Source of the DNA: Candidatus Bathyarchaeota archaeon
GTDB lineage: Archaea > Thermoproteota > Bathyarchaeia > 40CM-2-53-6 > RBG-13-38-9
DNA: 43,254 nt
NCBI GenBank assembly: GCA_026394315.1
Contig: JAPKYM010000213.1
Coordinates: forward strand, 1 to 43,254
Direction: 5' to 3'
How positions within the stretch are numbered: position 1 is the first letter of the stretch; each line of letters opens with the position of its first letter. The notes under the pieces are model-generated. The model saw nothing but the letters and a program-made list of their open reading frames with translations, was not told the origin of the DNA and made no database searches. Shown here piece after piece: positions 3,978-14,272 of this stretch. Position numbers and translations under genes: made by a program.

Positions 3978-4275
3978 CGTCCTTTTCAGCCAGTCTCAGT
4001 ATCTCTGAGTCCCCAGTTTCTCTAACTGTAATTGCGGCAACTATAAAGGGTTTCCCGCACAAAGTGCCGAGTTCCATACTCGTTCCCTCATAGATGTAGG
4101 TTGGCACTCCAGAGTTCTGAGCGTCCTTCACTATTTGCTCCTTGTCTGGGCAATTAGAAGCCAAGATTATCAGCCCGGCCCTTCCAAGCTTTGCAGCCGC
4201 AGATGCGTTTCGACTTCCAAGGTCTGTCTTTCCAGTCTTCAAGGTTATGGCGATCTGTTTACTGAAGTCTATCAT
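3958..4275 (-). CDS. rpl30e: 50S ribosomal protein eL30 (L30e)
   Basis: 105 aa with ...LKTGKTDLGSRN...LIILASNCP...ELGTLCGKPFIVAAITV..., matching the archaeal L30e pattern. Its ATG overlaps the rpoA stop (ATGA). Confidence 0.9.
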   Translation of the reverse strand: MIDFSKQIAITLKTGKTDLGSRNASAAAKLGRAGLIILASNCPDKEQIVKDAQNSGVPTYIYEGTSMELGTLCGKPFIVAAITVRETGDSEILRLAEKDDAVTKD

Positions 4276-7200
4276 TTGCTCGCCTCCTCCTCAGGCATGG
4301 ACATGTAGACATCTATTAGGCCAGTCCCCATTGGTATCTGGCGGCCCACTATGACGTTCTCAGCCACGCCTCTGAGCATATCTTTCGTGCCCTTGACCGA
4401 AGCGTCAACTATTGTCGGTATGGTTATCTCGAAGGCTGCCTTAGCCAGTGTAGAAGTTTTCTCTCCACTGATTCCATGCCTTCCAACTTGGAGTACCACG
4501 CCTGAGTTTGTCATCATATCAGCCACTAACATCACGTGCCTTATGTCAACATCGAGACCTTGCTCCTCCAATACTCCAATCGCCTCCTTCATTATTACAT
4601 TCCTTGCTGCCTCGATTCCCAAGACCCCTGCAACCTCATGGACATTATTAGAGACAGTTCTGGTTCTGTCGACCTTCGGTATCTCAAGAGCGTAACCTAG
4701 ACCAGAACCTTCAGTCCTTATGATCCATTCGCCCTTGTCCTCCAAGACCAATGCCTTTCTTACAGATGGGGCACCTTTGATTCTGAATTGTCTAAGACGT
4801 GTTGTGAACCTCTTGAACTGTGGTATCTCCATCTCCTTTGAGGTCACTTCAACATCATACCGGTCTATCTTGACTTGGCAGTTAGGTGGTTTAAGCGCGT
4901 CACGAACTTCTTGGAGAGTTATTCCTCTAATCTTCATAGTATTTGCGTTTAGTTTGGCCATGACCTTCATTCTACCCATGTCTGAAACTACGCTCTCACA
5001 GATATCCTCCAATGTGGTGTACGTAATGGCGTTGGCAACATCCTCTGCATATTCCCTCTTTGTGCGGTGTTTCTTGTCAAGGTATACAGTCATCGTAGGT
5101 GTTGAGGGGATCTTGCGAGCGTCAACTATCTCGATGAGTCTTGGAAGGCCTAATGTTACATTCTGTTCTTTGACCCCTGCGAAGTGGAATGTTCTCAAAG
5201 TCATTTGCGTTCCTGGTTCGCCTATCGATTGTGCTGATACTATTCCGGCGGCCTCTCCTGGTTCGATGAGTGCTCTGACATAACCCTCTATCGTTAGGTC
5301 TATGGCTTGATCCACGGCCTTACGTGTGAGCTTGGCTTCGCTGAGATGTCGCCTCAATTCGGCAACGAGACTTGGGTTGAGTTTGTCTGCAATTGAATTC
5401 ATCTTGGATTCGACGTACTTCTTGCTGGCAGGGGTGCCTTTCTCCGAGAACAATCTAACCCTGTCCACAAGACGCTCAGTGTTCACGGCTTTTCCGTGGT
5501 CGCTCTTGGCTGTATCGACACCATCCTCACCATACCTGAACTGGATTATGTTTCCAGTTGAGTCCCTTACAGTTCCATCATACTCAACCCTAAGGTGTTC
5601 CAACGCGTTGACCAAGCGTCTCTGCATGTAACCGCTTTGTTGAGTCCTGACGGCTGTGTCGACTAGCCCTTCCCTTCCACCGATAGCATGGAAGAAGAAT
5701 TCTATCGGGTTTAGGCCGTCTCTGTATGAAGAGTAAACGAAACCACGTGCCTCTGCTCCCGCGTCGTTAGGCTCAAAGAATGGGAGGGTTCTGTCACGAT
5801 AACCACGAAGAATCCTCTTGCCTCTAATCGATTGCTGACCAAGACAGGCGGTCATTTGACCAATATTCAACATCGACCCCCTAGCACCAGCCCTTGCCAT
5901 TATTATCCCGTTGTTATCTGCCGGGAAGTATTTGTCAGCGTACTCACCAGCGAGGTCTCTAACCTTTGAGAGTTCATTCATTATGTATATCTCCAGACTC
6001 TCATCGAGGGTCTGACCGGCCAGCCTATCAAGGGTTCCCTTCTTGTAGCTCTCAATGAGCTCATCGACTCTTTCCTCCGCCTTCTCTGTCGCTTTCCTAA
6101 TCTTATCCTTGACCTCTTCTGAGACTGCGAGTTCGTCAAAGCCATAGGTGAATCCTTTCAGCATTATGAATCGGTCAAGTAGCTTGGCTATGGAATTCAG
6201 GAATCCTCTTGCCGTTGTTGGTCCATAATCCTTTATTATCGTGTGGAAGAGGCTTTCTGATTTCTCAGCCCCTATTGAATTCTTGTCCACGACTCCCTGC
6301 TTCAACACACCGTCTTTGATCACGATGTAGGAGTCGTGCGGGCACTTCTCCTTCTTACAGACGGGACATTTGAAGACATTACACAGATTAGACTTCGAGG
6401 TGAAGTTCATACCCGCCGGTATGAAGAGGCTGAACACAGCCTTACCGGACCAGAGGGGATTGCTGCCTTTTACATCTGGAGGTGGAAGCTCCCCGGAGTA
6501 ACCTGCTGCAGTGACAAGTCTCCCAACCTGCTCTCTGGTAAGATAAGTTCCTTTGGCTGTCAGGAGAAAAGCTGAGCTTAGAAGATCTCTTATCGCTCCT
6601 ATTATCGGCCCTCCGTACCTTGGGGAGAGTATTTGGTCTTGAACCTGCATTAGTAACCTAGCTTCTGTCCGTGCCTCTTCACCCTGCGGTACGTGTAAGT
6701 TCATTTCATCTCCATCAAAGTCAGCGTTGTATGGCGGACAGACACAGGGATTGAGCCTGAATGTCTTGTGGGGTAGGACTCTGACTGAATGAGCCATAAT
6801 CGACATTCTGTGAAGTGAGGGTTGCCTGTTGAAGAGTACGATGTCACCATCTCTGATGTGTCTTTCAACAACGAAGGTGGGCTGTAAGCCTTCTGCGATG
6901 CTTTCCCTCTCAGGAACGAATTCGAGTCTTATTCTTCTACCGTCAGTCCGTACGATATACAGTGCTCCAGGATATTGATCTGGACCGTTCCTTATGAGCT
7001 GTCTCATCTCTTCAAGATTCCACTCAGTGACTTTCTCGGGGATGGTAAGTCGAGAAGCGAGCTCGATTGGGACTCCAACCTCGTTTATGTCCAAGTTCAG
7101 GTCTGGAGATATCACCGTCCTGGCTGAGAAATCAACGCGTTTACCAGAGAGATTCCCTCTGAACCTTCCTTCTTTGCCTTTTAGTCTTTGACATATTGTC

Positions 7201-8102
7201 TTGAGGGCTCTTCCGGATCTGTGTCTTGCAGGCGGTAAACCTGACACTTCGTTATCAAAATAGGTTGTGACATGATACTGCAGGAGCTCATGGAGCTCTT
7301 GAATTATGTTTATGGGCACACCGGACTCTAGAGCCTCGCCCAGCTTCTGATTTATTCTTATTATGTCAACGAGTTTGTGTGTCAAGTCGTCTTCGGATCT
7401 AATTCCTGACTCAAGGGTTATTGACGGTCTTACACTAACTGGTGGTACTGGGAGCACTTGGAGGATCATCCATTCCGGCCTTGCAGCTTGGGAATCTATC
7501 CCTAACAGTTTGAGGTCATCGTCAGAAATCCGCTCCAATCGTTCCCTTATTGCGCTCGGAGGGATCTTGGGCGCTCCACCCTCTACGGCCTCATGGAATG
7601 ACGTTGGCTTGACAAGTTCTATTGGGTACTGTTGAGTGCCACAATGAGGACATTCCATCGTCTTCTTTGCATGTTTGAGTATCTTCTTGTAGAGCGATTC
7701 TGGCACTGTGTTCAGTCGAGTCTTGACATCTTTTATCGTCTCTTCGTATTCCTTGATCTTGTCGTCTGAAAGCAAGATCCTGCCACAGTTTCTGCATATA
7801 ACCGATAGTAGACGATGAAGTAGCTTCACAAATGATACATGAATGACGGGTTCCGCAAGTTCTATGTGGCCGAAGTGTCCTGGACATGACATAGCGGTGT
7901 TGCCGCAGGTTCTGCACTTCTGTCTAGGCTCAAGAGTGCCTAACCGTCCGTCCATGAGGCCTGCTACTATTGGCACTCCATCTTCATCGTAAGTGTCCGC
8001 TGTCTGTATTTCTACTGTTGAGAGCTTCCTTATCTCATTAGGCGAGAGTAGGGAGAACTTTATACTGTCTACGATCTTATAGGTCTCTTCAGCGGCAGCC
8101 AT
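4272..8102 (-). CDS. rpoA: DNA-directed RNA polymerase subunit A, unsplit (A' and A'' parts in one 1276-codon ORF)
   Basis: The start is placed at ATG 8100-8102 (MAAAEETYKIVDSIKFSLLSPNEIRKLS), 3 nt after the rpoB stop. The tracked extension to 8231 overlaps rpoB. Contains the zinc motifs (CRTCGN..CPGHFGH), NADFDGDEMN, and the A'' hallmark EPGEAAGIVSAQSIGEPGTQMTLRTFHFAGV. No stop occurs at the usual A'/A'' junction (around 5400-5470). Confidence 0.95.
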   Translation of the reverse strand: MAAAEETYKIVDSIKFSLLSPNEIRKLSTVEIQTADTYDEDGVPIVAGLMDGRLGTLEPRQKCRTCGNTAMSCPGHFGHIELAEPVIHVSFVKLLHRLLSVICRNCGRILLSDDKIKEYEETIKDVKTRLNTVPESLYKKILKHAKKTMECPHCGTQQYPIELVKPTSFHEAVEGGAPKIPPSAIRERLERISDDDLKLLGIDSQAARPEWMILQVLPVPPVSVRPSITLESGIRSEDDLTHKLVDIIRINQKLGEALESGVPINIIQELHELLQYHVTTYFDNEVSGLPPARHRSGRALKTICQRLKGKEGRFRGNLSGKRVDFSARTVISPDLNLDINEVGVPIELASRLTIPEKVTEWNLEEMRQLIRNGPDQYPGALYIVRTDGRRIRLEFVPERESIAEGLQPTFVVERHIRDGDIVLFNRQPSLHRMSIMAHSVRVLPHKTFRLNPCVCPPYNADFDGDEMNLHVPQGEEARTEARLLMQVQDQILSPRYGGPIIGAIRDLLSSAFLLTAKGTYLTREQVGRLVTAAGYSGELPPPDVKGSNPLWSGKAVFSLFIPAGMNFTSKSNLCNVFKCPVCKKEKCPHDSYIVIKDGVLKQGVVDKNSIGAEKSESLFHTIIKDYGPTTARGFLNSIAKLLDRFIMLKGFTYGFDELAVSEEVKDKIRKATEKAEERVDELIESYKKGTLDRLAGQTLDESLEIYIMNELSKVRDLAGEYADKYFPADNNGIIMARAGARGSMLNIGQMTACLGQQSIRGKRILRGYRDRTLPFFEPNDAGAEARGFVYSSYRDGLNPIEFFFHAIGGREGLVDTAVRTQQSGYMQRRLVNALEHLRVEYDGTVRDSTGNIIQFRYGEDGVDTAKSDHGKAVNTERLVDRVRLFSEKGTPASKKYVESKMNSIADKLNPSLVAELRRHLSEAKLTRKAVDQAIDLTIEGYVRALIEPGEAAGIVSAQSIGEPGTQMTLRTFHFAGVKEQNVTLGLPRLIEIVDARKIPSTPTMTVYLDKKHRTKREYAEDVANAITYTTLEDICESVVSDMGRMKVMAKLNANTMKIRGITLQEVRDALKPPNCQVKIDRYDVEVTSKEMEIPQFKRFTTRLRQFRIKGAPSVRKALVLEDKGEWIIRTEGSGLGYALEIPKVDRTRTVSNNVHEVAGVLGIEAARNVIMKEAIGVLEEQGLDVDIRHVMLVADMMTNSGVVLQVGRHGISGEKTSTLAKAAFEITIPTIVDASVKGTKDMLRGVAENVIVGRQIPMGTGLIDVYMSMPEEEASK

Positions 8103-8104
8103 CC

Positions 8105-11100
8105 TTAAGCACGCTCCTCTACAAGTAGCCTTGGAGCGATTCCTAGTGACATAAGCTCCTGTATCAGGAGTTTGAACGCATATGAGATGGATACAGGTGA
8201 GATCGTTGTCTTCTCGCCACAGACCCTGCATACGTACTTGTTCTGACGTGAATCATAGTACGCCATTAGGCCACATTTTTCACACACCGTTGCGGTATAA
8301 CGATCAGATTCATCAAGCAACCTGTCCCTGAGAAGGGCAGACGCACCGTGGCCAATCAGACAGTCCCTTTCCATCTCGCCGAACCTTAGACCACCGCCTC
8401 TGGCTCTGCCTTCCGTTGGTTGCCTAGTCAGCATCTGGACCTGGCCCCTGGCTCGGGCATGCATCTTGTCGGCGACCATATGGTGCAGTTTCTGATAATA
8501 GACTAGCCCAGTGTATATATCTGCTTCAAGCTTCTTACCGCTCATTCCATTGTAGAAGACCTCTCGGCCATTGTACTCTAACCCTAGCTTCACCAAAGCC
8601 TCTTGGAGGGTTGAGGGTTCATCGTTGCTGAAAGGGGTCCCGTCGATTGGAAATCCCATCATAGCTCCCACTTTGCCGGCTATTGACTCCACAAATTGCC
8701 CTACTGTCATTCTTGAGGGGATGGCGTGAGGATTTATTACAACATCGGGTACGATCCCAGATTCCGAAAAAGGCATGTCCTCCTTCGGAACCAGTAATCC
8801 TATTACCCCTTTCTGTCCATGTCTGGAAGCGAATTTATCGCCCAATTCTGGGATCCTTTGATTTCGAACCTTCACTTTTACCAGTTTGTTTCCCTCGATG
8901 GATTCTGTCAGGAATACTTGGTCAACAATTCCTGATTCTGAAGGTCGCATACAAACTGATGAATCTCTTTTGGTTGGTCCTCTTACCTCGAAGTCTTTGT
9001 ATTCTTCCAGAAATCTCGGTGGGCTGACTCTGCCGATAAGAACCATATTACCTGAGACCGGTGCCTCTGCGGAGATTAGTCCGTCCTCCTCAAGAAGCCT
9101 GTAGAATCGATCGCCTCTATAACCTCTTGTTCCGCCTTCCGGGATCTCGAATTTGTCCCTTAGGCCTCCTAGATACTGACGACTGTCAGCTTCGTAGACT
9201 TTGAAGAAGCTTGATCTAAGCAGTCCAAGATCTACTGAGGAGCGGTTTATGATTATGGCATCCTCCATATTGTAGCCTTGAAGTGATAGGACTGCTACAA
9301 CACAGTTTTGTCCTGAGGGTCGTCTCTCAAAATTTATACACTCCATAGGCTTTGTTCTTACCAAAGGAACTTGTGGGTAGTGCAGAATATGGGATCTTGA
9401 ATCTACCCTCGTTGAGAAGTTCGTGGCGAATACTCCTAAAGCCTGCTTCCCCATTGCTGACTCGTATGCATTTCTTGGCGACTGATTGTGCTCGGCATAG
9501 GGTATCAGTGAGGAGCAGATACCCATGATAGTGTAGGGAGCAAGCTCAAGATGCGTGGTACTGTTAGTGATTTTAGATACTTCAATAGCTACAAGTGTAT
9601 CTTCTTCCTCGTCAGCGTCCAGGTACTCAACTATTCCTTGCTTGATAAGGTCTGACCAACTTGTTTCTCCGCTGTTCATCCTTTCAGCGATCTCGTCTGT
9701 AAGTTTGGACTTTCCATTCTGAACTACTATCAGCGGTCTTCTAACCCTTCCAGAGTCACAGTTCACATAGATCTCAGTGTTGGCTTTCTCATGTCTGAGC
9801 TGAGTGTAGGCCACATTAACTTCTGAGCTCAGCTCACCCTTCCTTCTCATGTCACGAATATTCTCAACAAAGGCCTTCGGATCCATTACGTAGCCAGCGA
9901 TTATACCATCAACGGTGACCTTAGCACCGCTCTTCCTCACTTTACGATCTGCTTTTTCCAGAGGCAGAAGATCTAGATTTGTAAGTGTTCTAACAACTTC
10001 CCGTGGATCAATTCCAACAGAGATTATTGCCGAGAGTGCCAGATTCTTGACCAGACCACAATTGGATCCTTCAGGAGTCTCGTTCGGGCAAAGCCTTCCC
10101 CAATGGGTTGGATGCAGATCTCTTGCTTGGAGGTTAGGTTGGCTTCTGCTCAATGGCGACTGAAGTCTTCTTAAATGACTAAGAGTTGCCGGATAATTTG
10201 TCCTATCAAGAAGCTGTGTGACGCCTATCCTGCCTCTGACCCAGTTCCCGGTTGCCATGGCATGTTGAATTCTCTCAGTGATTATTCCAGGCCTGATCGC
10301 GTTGGCTATAGAGAGTTCTACTGATCTTCTAATCGTTATCCTCTCGAGCTGGTACTTGAGGTCTCTGGCCAGATTCCTGAATGTTATTCTGAACAATTCT
10401 GCAAGAAGAGGCCCTGCAAGTTTCAGTCTCTTGTTAGAGTAGTGATCCTTGTCGTCAGGTTGCCTCCTACCAAGTTTCAACTCAACTATCTTAGCAATTA
10501 TCTCAGACAAGAAGTAGGATTTCTCTAGCCTGTTTTCAGGCATTCTACCTAAGTGTGGAAGGAAGTTTCTGTCTACTACGGTTTCAGCCTTCTTGGTTCT
10601 ATATTCAGCTATCTGTCCGGGAGCAAGTCTGTTACCTATGAACAGGAAGGCATCTTTACTAGACGTCACGTCCAGAGCTTTCTCGAAAGATCCCTCGAGT
10701 TCATTCTGAACCTCTTCATCAACTGACACTAATTCTGCTATCTTGACGTCTGCTTCAATTCCGAGAGCCTTCATGATGACAACGAAGGGTATATCCGCTG
10801 GCATCCCTGGCATTAAGACATAGATTGCGCCGTCGGTCTTCATAGTAACCTCAATTCGGGCTCTGAACCCAACTGTTGTTGAGAAGATCTTGGCCTTATA
10901 ATTCGGATTCAAACCCACCTTCTCAACATCAGCCAGAACACGGTTTGGAGCCAGATCTTCAAGTGCGACTACTACCCTTTCAGACCCGTTAATAAGGAAG
11001 TAGCCACCTGGGTCTAGAGGATCTTCACCGACTGAAACGAGCTCATCAGGAGTTAGTCTTGAAAGTGGACATATTGCGGACTTTAGCATTACAGGCAGAT

Positions 11101-11477: not shown

Positions 11478-11732
11478 TCAATCTTCAACAACATTACGGT
11501 AAATCACTACTTCTCCAGCCGTCGAGCTCCTCCGAACTATCTTGAGGACATCTCCAGGCTTTGCGTCTATAGCCAATACGGCCGGATCTGAGGCACGTAT
11601 TGATGGGAGTTGGTAGGACTTTATTCGGTGCCTGGCCAAGAGTTCCTCTAGCTCTTTCTTTGAAAGGATCGTATGCTGCGGAACCAGTTCATGTTCGAAG
11701 GTGAAGTCTCTCTTCTTTATTTCCTTAGTCAA
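11478..11732 (-). CDS. rpoH: DNA-directed RNA polymerase subunit H (Rpb5-like)
   Basis: 84 aa with [39 protein letters not shown]...[20 protein letters not shown], the typical RpoH pattern. TTG start. First gene of the RNAP block. Confidence 0.9.
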
Positions 11733-11825
11733 TCAGGACAACTGCTCCTAGCCGGAGAAAAAGCTCCTCACCATGAGCTTGGAGGACTCTGATATGGAGC
11801 TTGCTATTAGCAAAAATGATCATTC

Positions 11826-11835
11826 TAATAAATAT
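11826..11835 (-). promoter_or_regulatory. TATA-like box (ATATTTATTA on the minus strand) upstream of rpoH
   Basis: The only strong A/T box between rpoH and the inserted element. It lies about 95 nt upstream of the TTG start. Pattern only. Confidence 0.35.
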
Positions 11836-11837
11836 TG

Positions 11838-11846
11838 TGCGAGCAT
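11838..11846. repeat. target-site duplication, left copy (TGCGAGCAT)
   Basis: Identical 9-mer in direct orientation at 14194-14202. Each copy abuts the outer end of a terminal inverted repeat. Confidence 0.85.
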
Positions 11847-11916
11847 GGTTCTGGCAAGTCTTCGGTTGATCCAGCCGACTGTAAAAAGTCGGTTGATCGG
11901 TTGGTTCTGGTAACTT
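11847..11916. repeat. left terminal inverted repeat (70 bp) with internal subrepeats
   Basis: Sequence ggttctggcaagtcttcggttgatccagccgactgtaaaaagtcggttgatcggttggttctggtaactt. Contains GGTTCTGG twice, TCGGTTGATC twice, and a CCGACT/AGTCGG hairpin. Confidence 0.9.
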
Positions 11917-12032
11917 GACGGGTGGTTTAATGGAATTCTTCCGCCTGTTAAGTTTCGGGGGACTTTTCGAGTACATGGCAATTGGGGTAACTAATATTCA
12001 TTTCGCTAACAGTTCTCGCTTGGCGGAAATTA

Positions 12033-12767
12033 TTGCATCCACTTGAAAGAGCAGGATGGACATGCGGCTTCATTATGCTAATAATCATGATAATCACTTG
12101 GCTGGTAGGCGACATTCCTTTCCAGTGGAAAGCATTGTTTTCAGTCATATCCATTGTCATTATTGGAATTACTGCTTTCTGGAGAAGGATCAGAGGCTTC
12201 AAGCCGCCTAAACTGCTCGTCAAGCGAGCAGAGTTGAGTCCAGAGGAAGAAACGAGGGAAATTCGTGTCCGATTTCGTAATGGTCAAGAGAAGTTACATG
12301 AAGCTCGGTTTTACTTCGTTACAGTTGAGAATGTTGAAGGTAAAAGAATCAAAGGATTGCGACCATGTATTTACCTCCATTATAATATGTTGATCGTGTC
12401 GCCGTACGGCAAGCCCTTAATCAACGTGGATTATCAGGGGCCTCTATGGGAGTTTGAGCAAAAAGGGCTACAAGCTTACCTTGATGCCCTCATGAATGAC
12501 GGAAAGAAAGTAAAGGAGAGCGTTAGCTTTCCTCCAGATAAGAGAGCGTCCGTAACATTTGCCCTTTTCCTCACTTTGAAGGATTTTCCGTGGTTGGATA
12601 TTCCCGCAGACAAAAAACGCTATCACCCTATCCCATCTAAGTTCCGCATCAAGTTAGCCTTTAGGACGGAGGACTTGCTTCCTTACCATGTGGCAACATA
12701 CGAGATAAATGCCCAACAAACGTGGGATAAGATTGGTGTCGAAGAAGTTCAAGTTAAAGAAACTTAG
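12033..12767 (+). CDS. hypothetical membrane protein (two N-terminal TM helices plus a soluble domain); passenger gene
   Basis: 244-aa ORF (TTG start; alternative ATG at 12075). Has hydrophobic segments GFIMLIIMIITWLV and LFSVISIVIIGITAFW. I recognise no family. Confidence 0.55.
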   Translation: MHPLERAGWTCGFIMLIIMIITWLVGDIPFQWKALFSVISIVIIGITAFWRRIRGFKPPKLLVKRAELSPEEETREIRVRFRNGQEKLHEARFYFVTVENVEGKRIKGLRPCIYLHYNMLIVSPYGKPLINVDYQGPLWEFEQKGLQAYLDALMNDGKKVKESVSFPPDKRASVTFALFLTLKDFPWLDIPADKKRYHPIPSKFRIKLAFRTEDLLPYHVATYEINAQQTWDKIGVEEVQVKET

Positions 12768-12974
12768 GTTCTCTCAAATTTCAAGAGTTGTCTTAGCAAT
12801 TCCAAGTCGCGTTCGCACCCTTCAATGATCGATTTCAATCCCAATCTCCGTATGCGTGTAAGCAGAGTCGTGTAACCTTTGAGGCGTTTGCCTTCTAGAT
12901 AGGCTTCACGTCATAACCAACGACAGAAACCTAAATAAAGAAATTTATGCTCAAGTTCTGATTCCTAGTAGCCA

Positions 12975-13193
12975 TTGGCTTGCACTATTATCACTTCAAA
13001 ACACGCTTTTGAAAGGCAGGAAGAGAGAGGCATAAGTCCAGATGAGGTTCGCAATGCCATGATGAGAGGTTCGAAACATAAGAATTCAGATGGGACTATG
13101 ACTGCCAAGTATGGATCATGTGAAGTGGTTTATAAGAGTCCACGACAATGGAGACAGTTCGTGATAACTGTCAAAATCGTCTCTGGTGAATGA
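12975..13193 (+). CDS. DUF4258-like small toxin candidate; passenger gene
   Basis: 72 aa, TTG start. The N-terminus ITSKHAFERQEERGISPDEVRNAM fits the DUF4258 pattern (..HA..R..eR.Is..ev...). Its end overlaps the next ORF by 8 nt, a toxin-antitoxin-like arrangement. Confidence 0.55.
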   Translation: MACTIITSKHAFERQEERGISPDEVRNAMMRGSKHKNSDGTMTAKYGSCEVVYKSPRQWRQFVITVKIVSGE

Positions 13194-13563
13194 ACGATAT
13201 GGAAGAGTGCCTATTTGCTCAGGCCGCCTAAAAGAAGCGAAGGTGACCGTGGAGATTTCGGGAGCAAAACTCGGAAGTTTCGATGGTCTACAATGTGAGA
13301 GATGTGGCGAAGAGTTTCTTTTGCCAAAGTCAACGAATGTTGCACATGCGACAGCACTGAGCAAGAATCTTTTTGGTAAGTTGAAGGAACCCGAATCAAT
13401 GTCTACTCTACCACATGAATCACTAGCTTACGAAATTCGATCCGTAGGTACAGTAGTGACTCCCCTAACATCTACGAATGAAATAAGCTTGGCTAATTAT
13501 GAAGTTGAGATATCAACAAGCCTAACGGGTTCCTCTGTTGAGATAACTGCTAAATGCGAGTGA
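13186..13563 (+). CDS. zinc-ribbon (YgiT/MqsA-N-like) antitoxin candidate; passenger gene
   Basis: 125 aa, GTG start. ..PICSGRLKEAKVTVEISGAKLGSFDGLQCERCGEEF.. resembles the YgiT-type zinc-finger layout. The first CxxC is degenerate. Confidence 0.45.
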   Translation: MNERYGRVPICSGRLKEAKVTVEISGAKLGSFDGLQCERCGEEFLLPKSTNVAHATALSKNLFGKLKEPESMSTLPHESLAYEIRSVGTVVTPLTSTNEISLANYEVEISTSLTGSSVEITAKCE

Positions 13564-13578
13564 TGGCCTTTGGCTTCA

Positions 13579-14061
13579 ATGCCGAAAGGCACCGTATCCA
13601 AGGAACGTTTCGTAGATGTTGATTTTGAAGTTGTTAAGGAACCTTGGAACAAGTATCAATTAGATGATAATGCTATTCTCAAAGTCAAACTTGTTCTAAC
13701 TCTACTTCGTAGAAAAGAACTGTTACGACCTGATGGAAGTGTCGAGAAGATTGTCGGCTTTAGTTTTGACAGTCAAAATGTCACCACCGTACAGAGCGTC
13801 CCTGAATCCTTGAAGGGGTCTCCTTCTACAGAGTCCTACGATCCAAAACAACTTGAATCTTCCATAGTCCAAGATGACATTGGCTATACCACACTTGCCG
13901 AGGAATGGAATGAATATCTCGATGAAACTGGAGAAAAAGTTCGAATGAAAACAACTGTAGGCAGAGTGGCAAGAACAAGTAAATTTGACAAGCATGGAAA
14001 TCCTGTGTATCTTGTTTCATCGCATGGAATAGCTGACATAAAGGTTCGAAAACCATCCTAG
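13579..14061 (+). CDS. hypothetical protein; passenger gene
   Basis: ORF tracked from TTG 13570; the in-frame ATG at 13579 is preferred. About 160 aa, soluble, no family recognised. Confidence 0.5.
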   Translation: MPKGTVSKERFVDVDFEVVKEPWNKYQLDDNAILKVKLVLTLLRRKELLRPDGSVEKIVGFSFDSQNVTTVQSVPESLKGSPSTESYDPKQLESSIVQDDIGYTTLAEEWNEYLDETGEKVRMKTTVGRVARTSKFDKHGNPVYLVSSHGIADIKVRKPS

Positions 14062-14123
14062 ATTGGTGCCTTTTGACCACCCAGAAGTTAACAGGCCGAA
14101 AAAATCTGTTAGACTACCCACTT

Positions 14124-14193
14124 AAGTTACCAGAACCAACCGATCAACCGACTTTTTACAGTCGGCTGGATCAATCGAAGACTTGCCAGAACC
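14124..14193. repeat. right terminal inverted repeat (70 bp)
   Basis: Reverse complement of 11847-11916, except 14175 (T) against the complement of 11865. Confidence 0.9.
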
Positions 14194-14202
14194 TGCGAGC
14201 AT
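14194..14202. repeat. target-site duplication, right copy (TGCGAGCAT)
   Basis: Direct repeat of 11838-11846, immediately outside the right TIR. Confidence 0.85.
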
Positions 14203-14272
14203 CGGCTTCAGAAACATCTTGTGGCCGATAGTATGGGCTGGCCGGCTAGCGCCAGCACGCGCCGTTTCGCAT

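Follow-up and report, generated by a model that had tools for sequence, protein, structure and literature searches.

The window analysed here is a 43,254-nt stretch of contig JAPKYM010000213.1 from a Candidatus Bathyarchaeota archaeon. It carries a cassette of 2,347 bp (11847-14193) with four ORFs, located about 105 nt upstream of rpoH and ahead of the RNA polymerase operon. The original prediction had described the cassette as bounded by an inverted repeat and a direct 9-mer, and both are found. The repeat search gave an inverted repeat of 70 nt with one mismatch (11847-11916 against 14124-14193; 99% complementary). A weaker 40-nt extension with 75% match (11920-11959 and 14080-14119) is also present, which brings the full arm length to about 113-121 nt. 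The 9-mer TGCGAGCAT abuts both arms in direct orientation, at 11838-11846 on the left and 14194-14202 on the right, and has only these two occurrences in the 43-kb window. A 34-nt piece of the arm has no further match elsewhere in the window, where the chance expectation is 0. The predicted internal sub-repeats lie where they had been placed, with GGTTCTGG at 11847 and 11903, TCGGTTGATC at 11862 and 11889, and a CCGACT/AGTCGG hairpin.

The 70-bp terminal repeat is a composite, made up of a 56-nt outer unit and 14 nt that already belong to a separate inner arm, which begins at the second GGTTCTGG. The outer left unit (11847-11902, forward strand) consists of the tip GGTTCTGG, two TCGGTTGATC boxes and the hairpin, and shows no variation across strains. 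It is the functional end of the insertion event in the window, the boundary at 11846/11847 being defined by the empty sites described below. In the inner left arm (11903-11961, forward strand) the same tip is followed by two boxes, TAACTTGACGGGTGGT (box 1) and TGTTAAGTTTCGGGGG (box 2), with a spacer between them. Complete elements of the family discussed below have left ends of this type, and the arm could be aligned with 26 family arms of other loci; invariant columns include G1, T3-A11 and T13. On the other side, the inner right arm (14077-14137, reverse strand) is of the right-end type of the complete elements and fits the family pattern, and the outer right unit (14138-14193, reverse strand) varies within the population at two patches. 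Only the 8-nt tip is common to the outer and inner units, whose internal boxes differ. Inspection of the sequence showed no 8-bp duplication belonging to the inner arms inside the outer units.

The first passenger gene (12033-12767, forward strand) encodes a 244-aa protein with 2-3 transmembrane helices and a C-terminal domain of about 180 aa without assigned function. It gave no family match, and an exact look-up returned no record. The protein has 104 remote relatives, of which two are fusions with TIR domains. Two homologues, P0014 (84%) and P0015 (32%), likewise lie just inside a family arm, and the gene family adjoins the left arm in three independent elements. Relative to a 285-aa homologue in L034, whose model (pLDDT 57) was too poor for structure search, the 244-aa protein has probably lost N-terminal sequence through a frameshift. 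Of 11 strain contigs, 5 have the ORF in split form; position 12613, inside the ORF, sets the window apart from the other contigs. Homology of the 244-aa family to the proteins in the passenger slot of L039 and L068 was ruled out (hhalign probability 2.7%); on this comparison, what the two have in common is position and not ancestry. Next to it, tblastn located a relic of a small gene (12767-12907, reverse strand), covering residues 16-62 of a 64-aa gene. The relic is 66-71% identical to small ORFs of L039, L053 and L068 (E 3e-18 to 7e-17) and has a stop codon upstream; the intact 64-aa gene adjoins the transposase gene in complete copies.

The remaining three ORFs form a module on the forward strand. 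A 72-aa DUF4258-like protein, the putative toxin (12975-13193), matches Pfam PF14076 with E 6e-5 and 23.7 bits, just under the cut-off of 25, and its orthologue in L029 (70% identical) is over the cut-off with 33.4 bits. The putative antitoxin is a 125-aa zinc-ribbon protein of MqsA/YgiT type (13186-13563; YgiT_finger, E 0.012) whose first CxxC pair lacks its leading Cys (VPICSG). Its L029 orthologue reads CPICSG…CEKCG and has a weak match to the MqsA-family N-terminus (E 0.0065). The module ends with a 163-aa protein (13570-14061) that carries an (E)PWNxY motif twice. The AF2 model predicts with confidence (pLDDT 88) an all-beta fold of two repeats, for which no significant PDB or BFVD match was obtained. 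We found 12 homologues of this protein and no more. The complete element L053 has a homologue of it among its passengers (173 aa; hhalign probability 99.5%). The protein occurs in toxin-antitoxin-like triads without arms in L029-L033, and its ORF is truncated in one strain. The lost zinc-finger Cys, the frameshifted or split 244-aa ORF and the truncated 163-aa ORF may mean that the cargo is decaying. The cassette may now be an immobile relic; a toxin-antitoxin-like cargo may also help the element to persist.

None of the four ORFs had been taken for a transposase in the original prediction, and our searches agree. Profile searches of Pfam, NCBIfam, PHROGs and PADLOC gave no transposase or integrase match, the family transposase had no tblastn match in the window, and the predicted structure of the 163-aa protein, being all-beta, is not an RNase H fold. 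A recombinase gene is also absent from the cassette.

That the terminal repeats and the duplicated 9-mer are the footprint of transposition is borne out by empty sites, so the cassette is an insertion. Contigs drawn from the members of 90% clusters include four from sister strains (L071-L074) in which the cassette is absent, TGCGAGCAT is present once and the gene for a 260-aa protein adjoins rpoH directly. The predicted empty site aataaatattgTGCGAGCATcggcttcagaaac occurs verbatim in L072-L074, which represent a sister population, and with a private 1-nt deletion in L071 (NCBI GCA_022868305.1). Flank identity is 98.4-98.8% for L071 and 96.6-97.4% for the other three. In BLAST comparison with the empty sites, the breakpoints are exactly 11846 and 14194, and the two matches overlap by 9 nt. 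As three empty sites equal the exact reconstruction, the 9-bp duplication is genuine; a reading of 8 bp was ruled out because the empty sites show all nine bases to be duplicated. The occupied site has identical junctions in 17 contigs from separate samples and assemblies (ENA, JGI, Logan and NCBI), and therefore the cassette is not the assembly chimera that had been named as a possible refutation. With the 260-aa neighbour as query, no relatives were found in the GTDB genomes for the orthologous locus, and the cassette is known from this one insertion site only.

The near-perfect 70-nt repeat is restricted to the window strain. Most other assemblies of the species have a right arm that departs from that of the window in two patches, namely patch 1 (14137-14142), with an 8-nt insertion and 4 substitutions, and patch 2 (14162-14170), with 7 substitutions. 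In these diverged strains the right arm has neither the hairpin nor the second TCGGTTGATC. Variation is concentrated here, with 184 variable columns per kb in the outer right unit and 0-38 per kb in every other segment compared. All four combinations of the two patches were found among strains that are more than 99.5% identical, and each patch occurs in two states, of which one has the sequence of the invariant left arm. These combinations suggest short-tract gene conversion between the arms as the explanation of the patchy right arm, and parsimony points to a direction from the left arm to the right. Because the polymorphism is patchy, the near-perfect repeat need not mean a recent insertion. 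A reading as an old insertion with decayed arms was ruled out since the empty-site strains have diverged by only 1.2-3.4% and it is a family trait for the left and right inner arms to differ. It may be noted that the sub-repeats and the hairpin had been proposed as transposase-binding subsites. Their coordinates hold, but they belong to the outer unit and lack conservation in the right arms of most strains; the conserved elements are the two boxes of the inner arm.

The ends had not been recognised as those of any named IS family, and here the original prediction has to be revised. The tip GGTTCTG and the inner arm are, by sequence, those of an archaeal IS6-like group. The inner arm (GGTTCTGGTAACTTGA…TGTTAACTTG…GGGG, ~60 nt) matches ends at about 30 other metagenomic sites. 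Its pattern was found in 35 metagenome stretches, with flanks that are different in nearly all of them; one match, L052, is the same locus as the window. A total of 28 arms, both window inner arms included, align with an invariant tip. In several family arms we also observed a stem with a T-rich loop between the two boxes. A conserved hairpin at this place was dropped as a candidate, with 45% pairing, no better than slid controls. Complete members encode a transposase of 317-411 aa with a DDE domain of IS6 type, to which the full-length proteins (393 and 411 aa) add N-terminal SWIM-like and CxxC zinc fingers. The transposases match Pfam PF13610 (DDE_Tnp_IS240) with E 1e-15 to 7e-21, and NCBIfam transpos_IS6 (NF033587) gives 140 bits for a cut-off of 125. 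Among 2,134 homologues of the transposase, one is named 'IS6 family transposase [Candidatus Bathyarchaeia archaeon]'. Perfect 8-bp duplications flank L039, L045, L053, L062 and L068, and L055 matches at 7 of 8 positions. In 5 of 11 distinct paired relatives no duplication is detectable and in one more it is imperfect (7 of 8); the missing duplications are compatible with cointegrate transposition without being diagnostic of it. Autonomous copies were seen in the same kind of samples, and the IS6-like group is common in such Bathyarchaeota-rich sediments.

Gene order also links the cassette to this group. Complete members, which are 2.4-4.9 kb long with several passengers, have the order left arm, variable passenger slot, 64-aa gene on the opposite strand, transposase, more passengers and right arm. 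The window is collinear with L070 and L053 except for its truncated small gene and missing transposase. The pair of DUF4258 and zinc-finger genes occupies the transposase position, followed by the gene for the 163-aa protein, and the homologue of the latter in L053 sits at the same relative position. L070 has a homologue of the 244-aa protein plus the start of a transposase gene. Other relatives without transposase carry a GNAT acetyltransferase (L036/L059), a winged-helix protein (L040), a DUF3303 protein (L058), a 244-aa homologue (L055) or two small ORFs (L057). The suggested search for more copies and for an autonomous partner was thus successful for the inner ends, which led to the IS6 transposase. 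For the outer ends it was not, as neither a second copy nor a transposase specific to them was found in GTDB representatives, JGI or IMG/VR. The outer tip GGTTCTGGCAAGTCTTCGRTTGA had 0 matches in GTDB representative genomes and, after exclusion of the known flanks, 0 matches in JGI metagenomes in a scan that covered 56% of the possible flanks. In IMG/VR the outer tip, the internal pattern of the outer unit and the inner-arm pattern all had 0 matches.

We consider it probable that the cassette is a non-autonomous, passenger-carrying derivative of an IS6-like insertion sequence. An alternative that would refine this explanation and not replace it is that the outer 56-nt units delimit a distinct MITE-like element, belonging to an IS group that makes 9-bp duplications, with the IS6-type cassette carried passively inside. 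The confinement of the similarity between outer and inner units to the 8-nt tip, with different boxes, would be expected of two elements, and so would the position of the insertion boundaries at the outer tips. The duplication is 9 bp as against 8 bp in five relatives with inner-type ends, and TGCGAGCAT has no C-run of the kind seen in family duplications. Yet neither a free MITE copy nor a parent IS came out of the GTDB representatives, JGI or IMG/VR, the inner arms have no 8-bp duplication around them within the outer units, and the identical GGTTCTGG tips point to a closely related enzyme instead of another family. On balance, we hold the nested arrangement to be plausible and somewhat less probable than its absence.

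Two further explanations fare much worse than the IS6-like derivative. The cassette would be an autonomous novel IS if one of its proteins were an unrecognised transposase, for which one could cite the 244-aa family beside the left arm in three independent elements and the confident 163-aa fold that has no known relatives in structure searches. But the 244-aa product is a predicted membrane protein with relatives of its C-terminal domain fused to TIR domains, and the all-beta 163-aa protein also occurs in triads that have no arms. Canonical IS6 transposases are encoded by elements with these arms, L070 contains both the start of a transposase gene and a homologue of the 244-aa protein, and the window keeps the relic of the gene that neighbours the transposase. 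These points make an autonomous IS very improbable. An assembly artefact, or an inverted repeat not due to transposition (an invertible segment or a recombination site), is hardly credible at all. It could be argued from the fact that a right arm identical to the left in both patches is seen in the window only, and from contigs L008 and L018, which break within arms. Against it, the junctions are the same in 17 contigs of four data sources, each patch state of the window is seen independently (L027, L016, L008), the exact empty sites have a single 9-mer, and there is no recombinase gene. Also, the patch switch points, at about 5 nt, are too short for a mosaic made by a k-mer assembler.

Mobile insertion cassettes (MICs) have IS-type inverted repeats around passenger genes without a transposase and are 0.7-3 kb long (MIC231 of Bacillus cereus; Chen et al. 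1999, De Palmenaer et al. 2004; summarised in PMC6199540). The likeness to MICs that had been predicted is upheld, as the cassette has four of their features, namely two inverted repeats derived from an IS, coding passengers, no transposase, and a target duplication together with an empty site. Its 2,347 bp fall within the size range; also, the region beside the left repeat is common to the cassette and the parental IS, and relatives carry other passengers. Unlike MIC231, the parent is IS6-like and not IS231 (IS4 family), the host is archaeal, the long arms have two tiers, and mobilisation in trans is a prediction. IS6 elements begin at their ends with GG, carry G as the seventh base and generate 8-bp repeats (PMC7986276, PMC6807381); canonical members are about 800 bp long with 14-20-bp repeats and one gene (PMC7986276). 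In the GGTTCTG of both its outer and inner tips, the cassette resembles IS26, IS257 and the archaeal ISC774 and ISPfu1. The complete relatives pass the NCBIfam IS6 cut-off, match DDE_Tnp_IS240 and make 8-bp duplications as IS6 elements do. They differ in their two-box arms of ~60 nt, their length, their several passengers and their extended transposases. The window element differs further in being transposase-free, with an extra outer unit that makes its arms about 113-121 nt long, and in its 9-bp duplication. The complete relatives L053, L062 and L068, with a transposase and unrelated genes within inverted repeats, are passenger-carrying insertion sequences (tIS), unlike the window element with no transposase. 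With a MITE the cassette shares non-autonomy, inverted repeats with a duplication, and the need for a transposase in trans, and the outer units alone would give a MITE of about 112-120 bp. A MITE is, however, non-coding and under ~0.5 kb, whereas the cassette has 2.35 kb and four ORFs. In place of the two complete flanking IS copies of a compound or pseudo-compound transposon, there are only arms.

The small-gene relic beside the missing transposase marks the cassette as a transposase-deletion derivative, and an ancestor similar to L053 would have lost its transposase through deletion or replacement. A DDE transposase acting in trans would then have made its cuts at the outer GGTTCTGG tips and transferred these to a staggered break of 9 bp, at a site about 105 nt ahead of rpoH. 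An IS6-type route would probably involve a replicative cointegrate followed by host homologous recombination. As one possible route, the cassette was perhaps nested inside a short MITE-like element, a step against which the lack of a separate duplication around the inner arms, within the outer units, has to be set. We favour mobilisation by a sister transposase specific for the outer ends, because their internal boxes differ and the duplication is 9 bp and not 8 bp. After insertion, short-patch gene conversion from left to right would have yielded the near-perfect repeat.

In the 2021 review of the IS6 family, two MITEs and one passenger-carrying member are given for the whole family (PMC7986276). 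The present elements indicate IS6-like passenger carriage and repeated transposase loss in an uncultured archaeal lineage, which extends the MIC concept to archaea and to the IS6 group. The right-arm patches would be a clear example of gene conversion over short tracts that links two inverted repeats. Strains with occupied and empty sites just upstream of the RNA polymerase operon provide a natural before-and-after pair for the activity of the element and its effects on a core promoter. The triad of DUF4258, zinc-finger and 163-aa proteins and the TIR-fused domain are candidates for toxin-antitoxin or defence functions. A wider and rather doubtful proposal is that Bathyarchaeota host a large, hitherto undescribed IS6-like branch that carries conflict genes and readily sheds its transposase (archaeal 'MICs'), of which this copy is end-swapped and nested, with arms matched by gene conversion. 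If this is true, toxin-antitoxin triads, GNAT, Fic and TIR-linked domains would be the modular cargo of that branch, and the whole cassette would have been moved by the transposase of a second element, one that leaves a 9-bp duplication.

The segments 11847-11916 and 14124-14193 form an inverted repeat of 70 nt with 99% complementarity in a repeat search of the window, which continues inwards as a weaker 40-nt extension (11920-11959/14080-14119, 75%), and a 34-nt arm probe matched only the two arms in the window (0 matches expected by chance). The 9-mer TGCGAGCAT occurs exactly twice in the 43 kb, in direct orientation, immediately outside each arm. The inverted repeat, the sub-repeats within its arms and the flanking 9-mer of the original prediction, which was made from the sequence alone, are thus all found where they were predicted. 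It may be noted that two spurious ORFs (11725-11976, minus strand and 14073-14231, plus strand) both encode …LPEPTDQPTFYSRLDQ… because both read through the arms. To the left of the cassette lie rpoH (11478-11732) and rpoB with fused rpoA, all on the minus strand, and to the right a gene for a 260-aa membrane protein, QueT and CO dehydrogenase/acetyl-CoA synthase subunits; these surroundings are archaeal, and the NCBI names of clustered proteins give Candidatus Bathyarchaeota as the host. RNA polymerase A′ and A″, normally two genes in archaea, appear fused here, since one 1,319-aa ORF (4272-8231, minus strand) carries Rpb1 domains 1-5, and the gene calls of related contigs likewise give one product (1,276 aa). 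An AT-rich stretch, TAATAAATATT (11826-11846), adjoins the insertion point, some 95-105 nt upstream of where rpoH starts; a candidate for the TATA/BRE region of the RNA polymerase operon, it was kept intact by the 9-bp duplication.

Occupied sites were found through exact matches to three proteins: the cargo protein of 163 aa, RpoH and the 260-aa neighbour. In 17 contigs, drawn from separate samples or assemblies of ENA, JGI, Logan and NCBI, the identical cassette was present at the identical place, and therefore an assembly chimera at the junctions, the danger recognized in the original prediction, is excluded. For empty sites, the 90%-identity clusters to which the flanking proteins belong were searched for further members, and in four contigs the 260-aa gene was adjacent to rpoH: one from NCBI (L071, GCA_022868305.1), whose flanks share 98.4-98.8% identity with the window, and three from ENA, JGI and Logan (L072-L074), 96.6-97.4% identical. 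The latter three match exactly the empty site that had been reconstructed from the window, AATAAATATTGTGCGAGCATCGGCTTCAGAAAC, and L071 differs from it by a private 1-nt deletion. When the empty-site contigs are aligned with the window by BLAST, the breakpoints are 11846 and 14194 and the two matches overlap by 9 nt. Therefore, the 2,347-bp unit (11847-14193) entered as one piece via its outermost GGTTCTGG tips, duplicating nine bases. As the occupied strains are >99.5% identical to one another, the insertion took place on the branch that leads to this tight clade.

The outer tip gave no match in the GTDB representative genomes, IMG/VR or the JGI metagenomes, the last scanned with the known flanks excluded and 56% of possible flanks covered. 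Only 3 homologues of the 244-aa cargo protein (12033-12767, plus strand) were found in a large protein database. One of them (84% identity), on a JGI contig of 88.9 kb (L034), has a quite different setting, namely a defence island, and on either side of it lie the arms of a 42-nt, 93% inverted repeat that corresponds to the inner part of the window arm, from the second GGTTCTGG. The defence-island-like surroundings of this small element (L034:11495-20858) comprise DUF499, DUF1156, SNF2 helicase, DUF7680 and Fic. A degenerate inner-arm pattern matched 35 metagenome stretches with different flanks in nearly all, and the common architecture of the arms is GGTTCTGGTAACTTGA(G/C)GGGTGGT, a spacer of ~20 nt and (T/G)GT(T/A)AACT…GGGGGG. 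The tip is invariant across 28 aligned arms, both inner arms of the window (11903-11961 and 14077-14137) included, and these two show the same asymmetry as complete elements, where the left version of box 1 is slightly unlike the right. Both ends were found at 12 loci, counted as 11 distinct elements since L036 and L059 are one, with a spacing of 964 to 4,890 bp; perfect 8-bp duplications are present in five and a 7/8 duplication in one. Flanks and duplications were examined for the arms of L037, L042, L051, L053, L056, L063, L064, L066 and L068. The duplications of the family end in C-runs (CGAAACCC, GGGTACCC, ATACACCC, AACCCCCC), and many flanks read CCCCCC-N-GGGGGG(T)GGGGGG, similar to box 2 of the arms; these elements may land beside or within one another.

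A protein of 317-411 aa is encoded by the longer elements (L039, L041, L045, L053, L062, L065 and L068). In its versions of 393 and 411 aa, the N-terminus carries a SWIM-like motif along with CxxC zinc fingers, and the 317-aa call in L039 retains the CxxC pair only. Its DDE domain matches Pfam DDE_Tnp_IS240 (E 1e-15 to 7e-21), the protein scores 140 bits against NCBIfam transpos_IS6 (curated cut-off 125), and one of its 2,134 homologues at E ≤ 1e-10 is named 'IS6 family transposase [Candidatus Bathyarchaeia archaeon]'. Tips that begin with GG, a G as the seventh base and duplications of 8 bp are hallmarks of IS6 (PMC7986276, PMC6807381); the present group differs from canonical IS6 in its long arms with two boxes, its longer transposase and its additional genes. 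Complete copies have the order left arm, variable passenger slot, 64-aa gene on the opposite strand, transposase, more passengers and right arm. An autonomous partner had been anticipated, and it is found for the inner ends in these elements with an IS6-type transposase, but not for the outer tip, of which no second copy was found. The original prediction recognized no named IS family in the ends; the inner arms are now assigned to this archaeal IS6-like group. Short relatives without transposase carry a GNAT acetyltransferase and a membrane protein (L036/L059), a winged-helix protein (L040), two small ORFs (L057), a DUF3303 protein (L058) or a homologue of the 244-aa protein (L055). To the right of the L040 element lies the sequence (CATTGCTC…) that flanks the L046 element on its left, the right arm and cargo being common to both, and L046 also has a C-terminal transposase fragment; the pattern looks like recombination or deletion between copies.

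Of the 64-aa small protein, residues 16-62 are encoded in the window at 12767-12907 (minus strand; 66-71% identity, lowest E 3e-18), with a stop codon upstream, and a search with the family transposase detected no transposase remnant. The intact order of arm, 32%-identical homologue of the 244-aa protein, small gene and start of the transposase gene is seen in L070. The complete element L053 encodes a 173-aa homologue of the window 163-aa protein (hhalign probability 99.5%), and its gene is the last before the right arm, the place of the 163-aa gene (13570-14061, plus strand) in the window. The simplest reading is that the window element would have arisen from an L053-like passenger-carrying IS by loss of the 5′ end of the small gene and the entire transposase gene. 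The DUF4258/zinc-finger pair (12975-13193 and 13186-13563, plus strand) sits where the transposase gene would be. Together with the 163-aa gene it also forms an arm-less three-gene module elsewhere, which adjoins a tyrosine-recombinase-like gene on contig L029 (70% nucleotide identity) and in which a Fic toxin replaces DUF4258 on L030-L033; therefore, the last two genes of the module pair with different toxins. On L030-L033 the Fic-domain protein comes first, then a protein of 98 aa and one of 147 aa that is homologous (43%) to the 163-aa protein. In L029:1-7342 the neighbouring ORF, of 353 aa, shows tyrosine-recombinase-like motifs (HxxR…Y); the locus, which also encodes a 538-aa protein rich in Ala, Thr and Ser, resembles an integrated virus or plasmid.

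None of the four cargo proteins resembles a transposase or recombinase, in agreement with the original prediction. The DUF4258-like ORF scores 23.7 bits, slightly below the Pfam cut-off, and its L029 orthologue 33.4 bits, over it. The zinc-ribbon ORF overlaps it, as toxin-antitoxin pairs do, and its product, whose first Cys is lost in the window copy, has a weak likeness to the N-terminus of MqsA/YgiT antitoxins. The model of the 163-aa protein is an all-beta two-repeat fold (pLDDT 88) with no structural match in PDB or BFVD. The 244-aa protein has transmembrane helices and a ~180-aa C-terminal domain with 104 remote relatives, in two of which (P0213 and P0234) it is fused to TIR domains; there are hints of an anti-virus defence role for this domain. 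Frameshifts are found in the 244-aa and 163-aa genes in several strains, so the cargo may be decaying. A 1-nt homopolymer deletion splits the 244-aa ORF in 5 of the 11 strain contigs, and elsewhere among the strains there is a 3-nt deletion or a frameshifted zinc-finger gene (variant positions 12465, 13247 and 12714-12716); these indels are either real decay or homopolymer errors.

Each arm of the window element consists of two tiers, an outer 56-nt unit (11847-11902 and 14138-14193) and, inwards of it, the inner family arm. Besides the tip GGTTCTGG, the outer unit contains a hairpin and two copies of the box TCGGTTGATC, and only the tip is common to both tiers. The window insertion used the outer tips with a 9-bp duplication, and relatives using inner-type tips have 8-bp duplications at targets ending in C-runs; no duplication flanks the inner arms of the window element. 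One route to such ends would be nesting of the cassette within a short MITE-like element, of which no free copy or parent was found. We favour a sister transposase with specificity for the outer boxes, which would have moved the window element. On comparing strains, the left arm is invariant, and variable columns number 184 per kb in the right arm as opposed to 0-38 per kb in every other compared segment. This variation is limited to two patches with all four combinations present: both are identical to the left arm in the window, the first only in L027, the second only in L016 and neither in the majority of strains. The window state of the first patch is supported independently by L008. Clustered multi-base changes in near-identical strains need a template, of which the left arm is the obvious source, and on this ground short-patch gene conversion between the arms is the best explanation. 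The near-perfect 70-bp repeat of the window is a derived, strain-specific state.

The MIC231 type of mobile insertion cassette has inverted repeats, passengers and a duplication, no transposase, and a left-repeat region shared with the parent IS (PMC6199540). The window element resembles it in all of these, including the region near the left repeat common with its parent, and by this analogy can be regarded as a mobile insertion cassette in function and structure, the likeness that the original prediction had drawn, except that its source is the archaeal IS6-like group and not IS231. Taken alone, it departs from IS6 in having no transposase, a 9-bp duplication and long arms; therefore, it is filed as an IS6-like derivative and not as an IS6 member. 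The original interpretation is supported as a whole, with mobilisation in trans, and a cointegrate mechanism, being what knowledge of the family would lead one to expect. To it are now added a family assignment, a probable origin by transposase deletion, two-tier ends and putative gene conversion between the arms.
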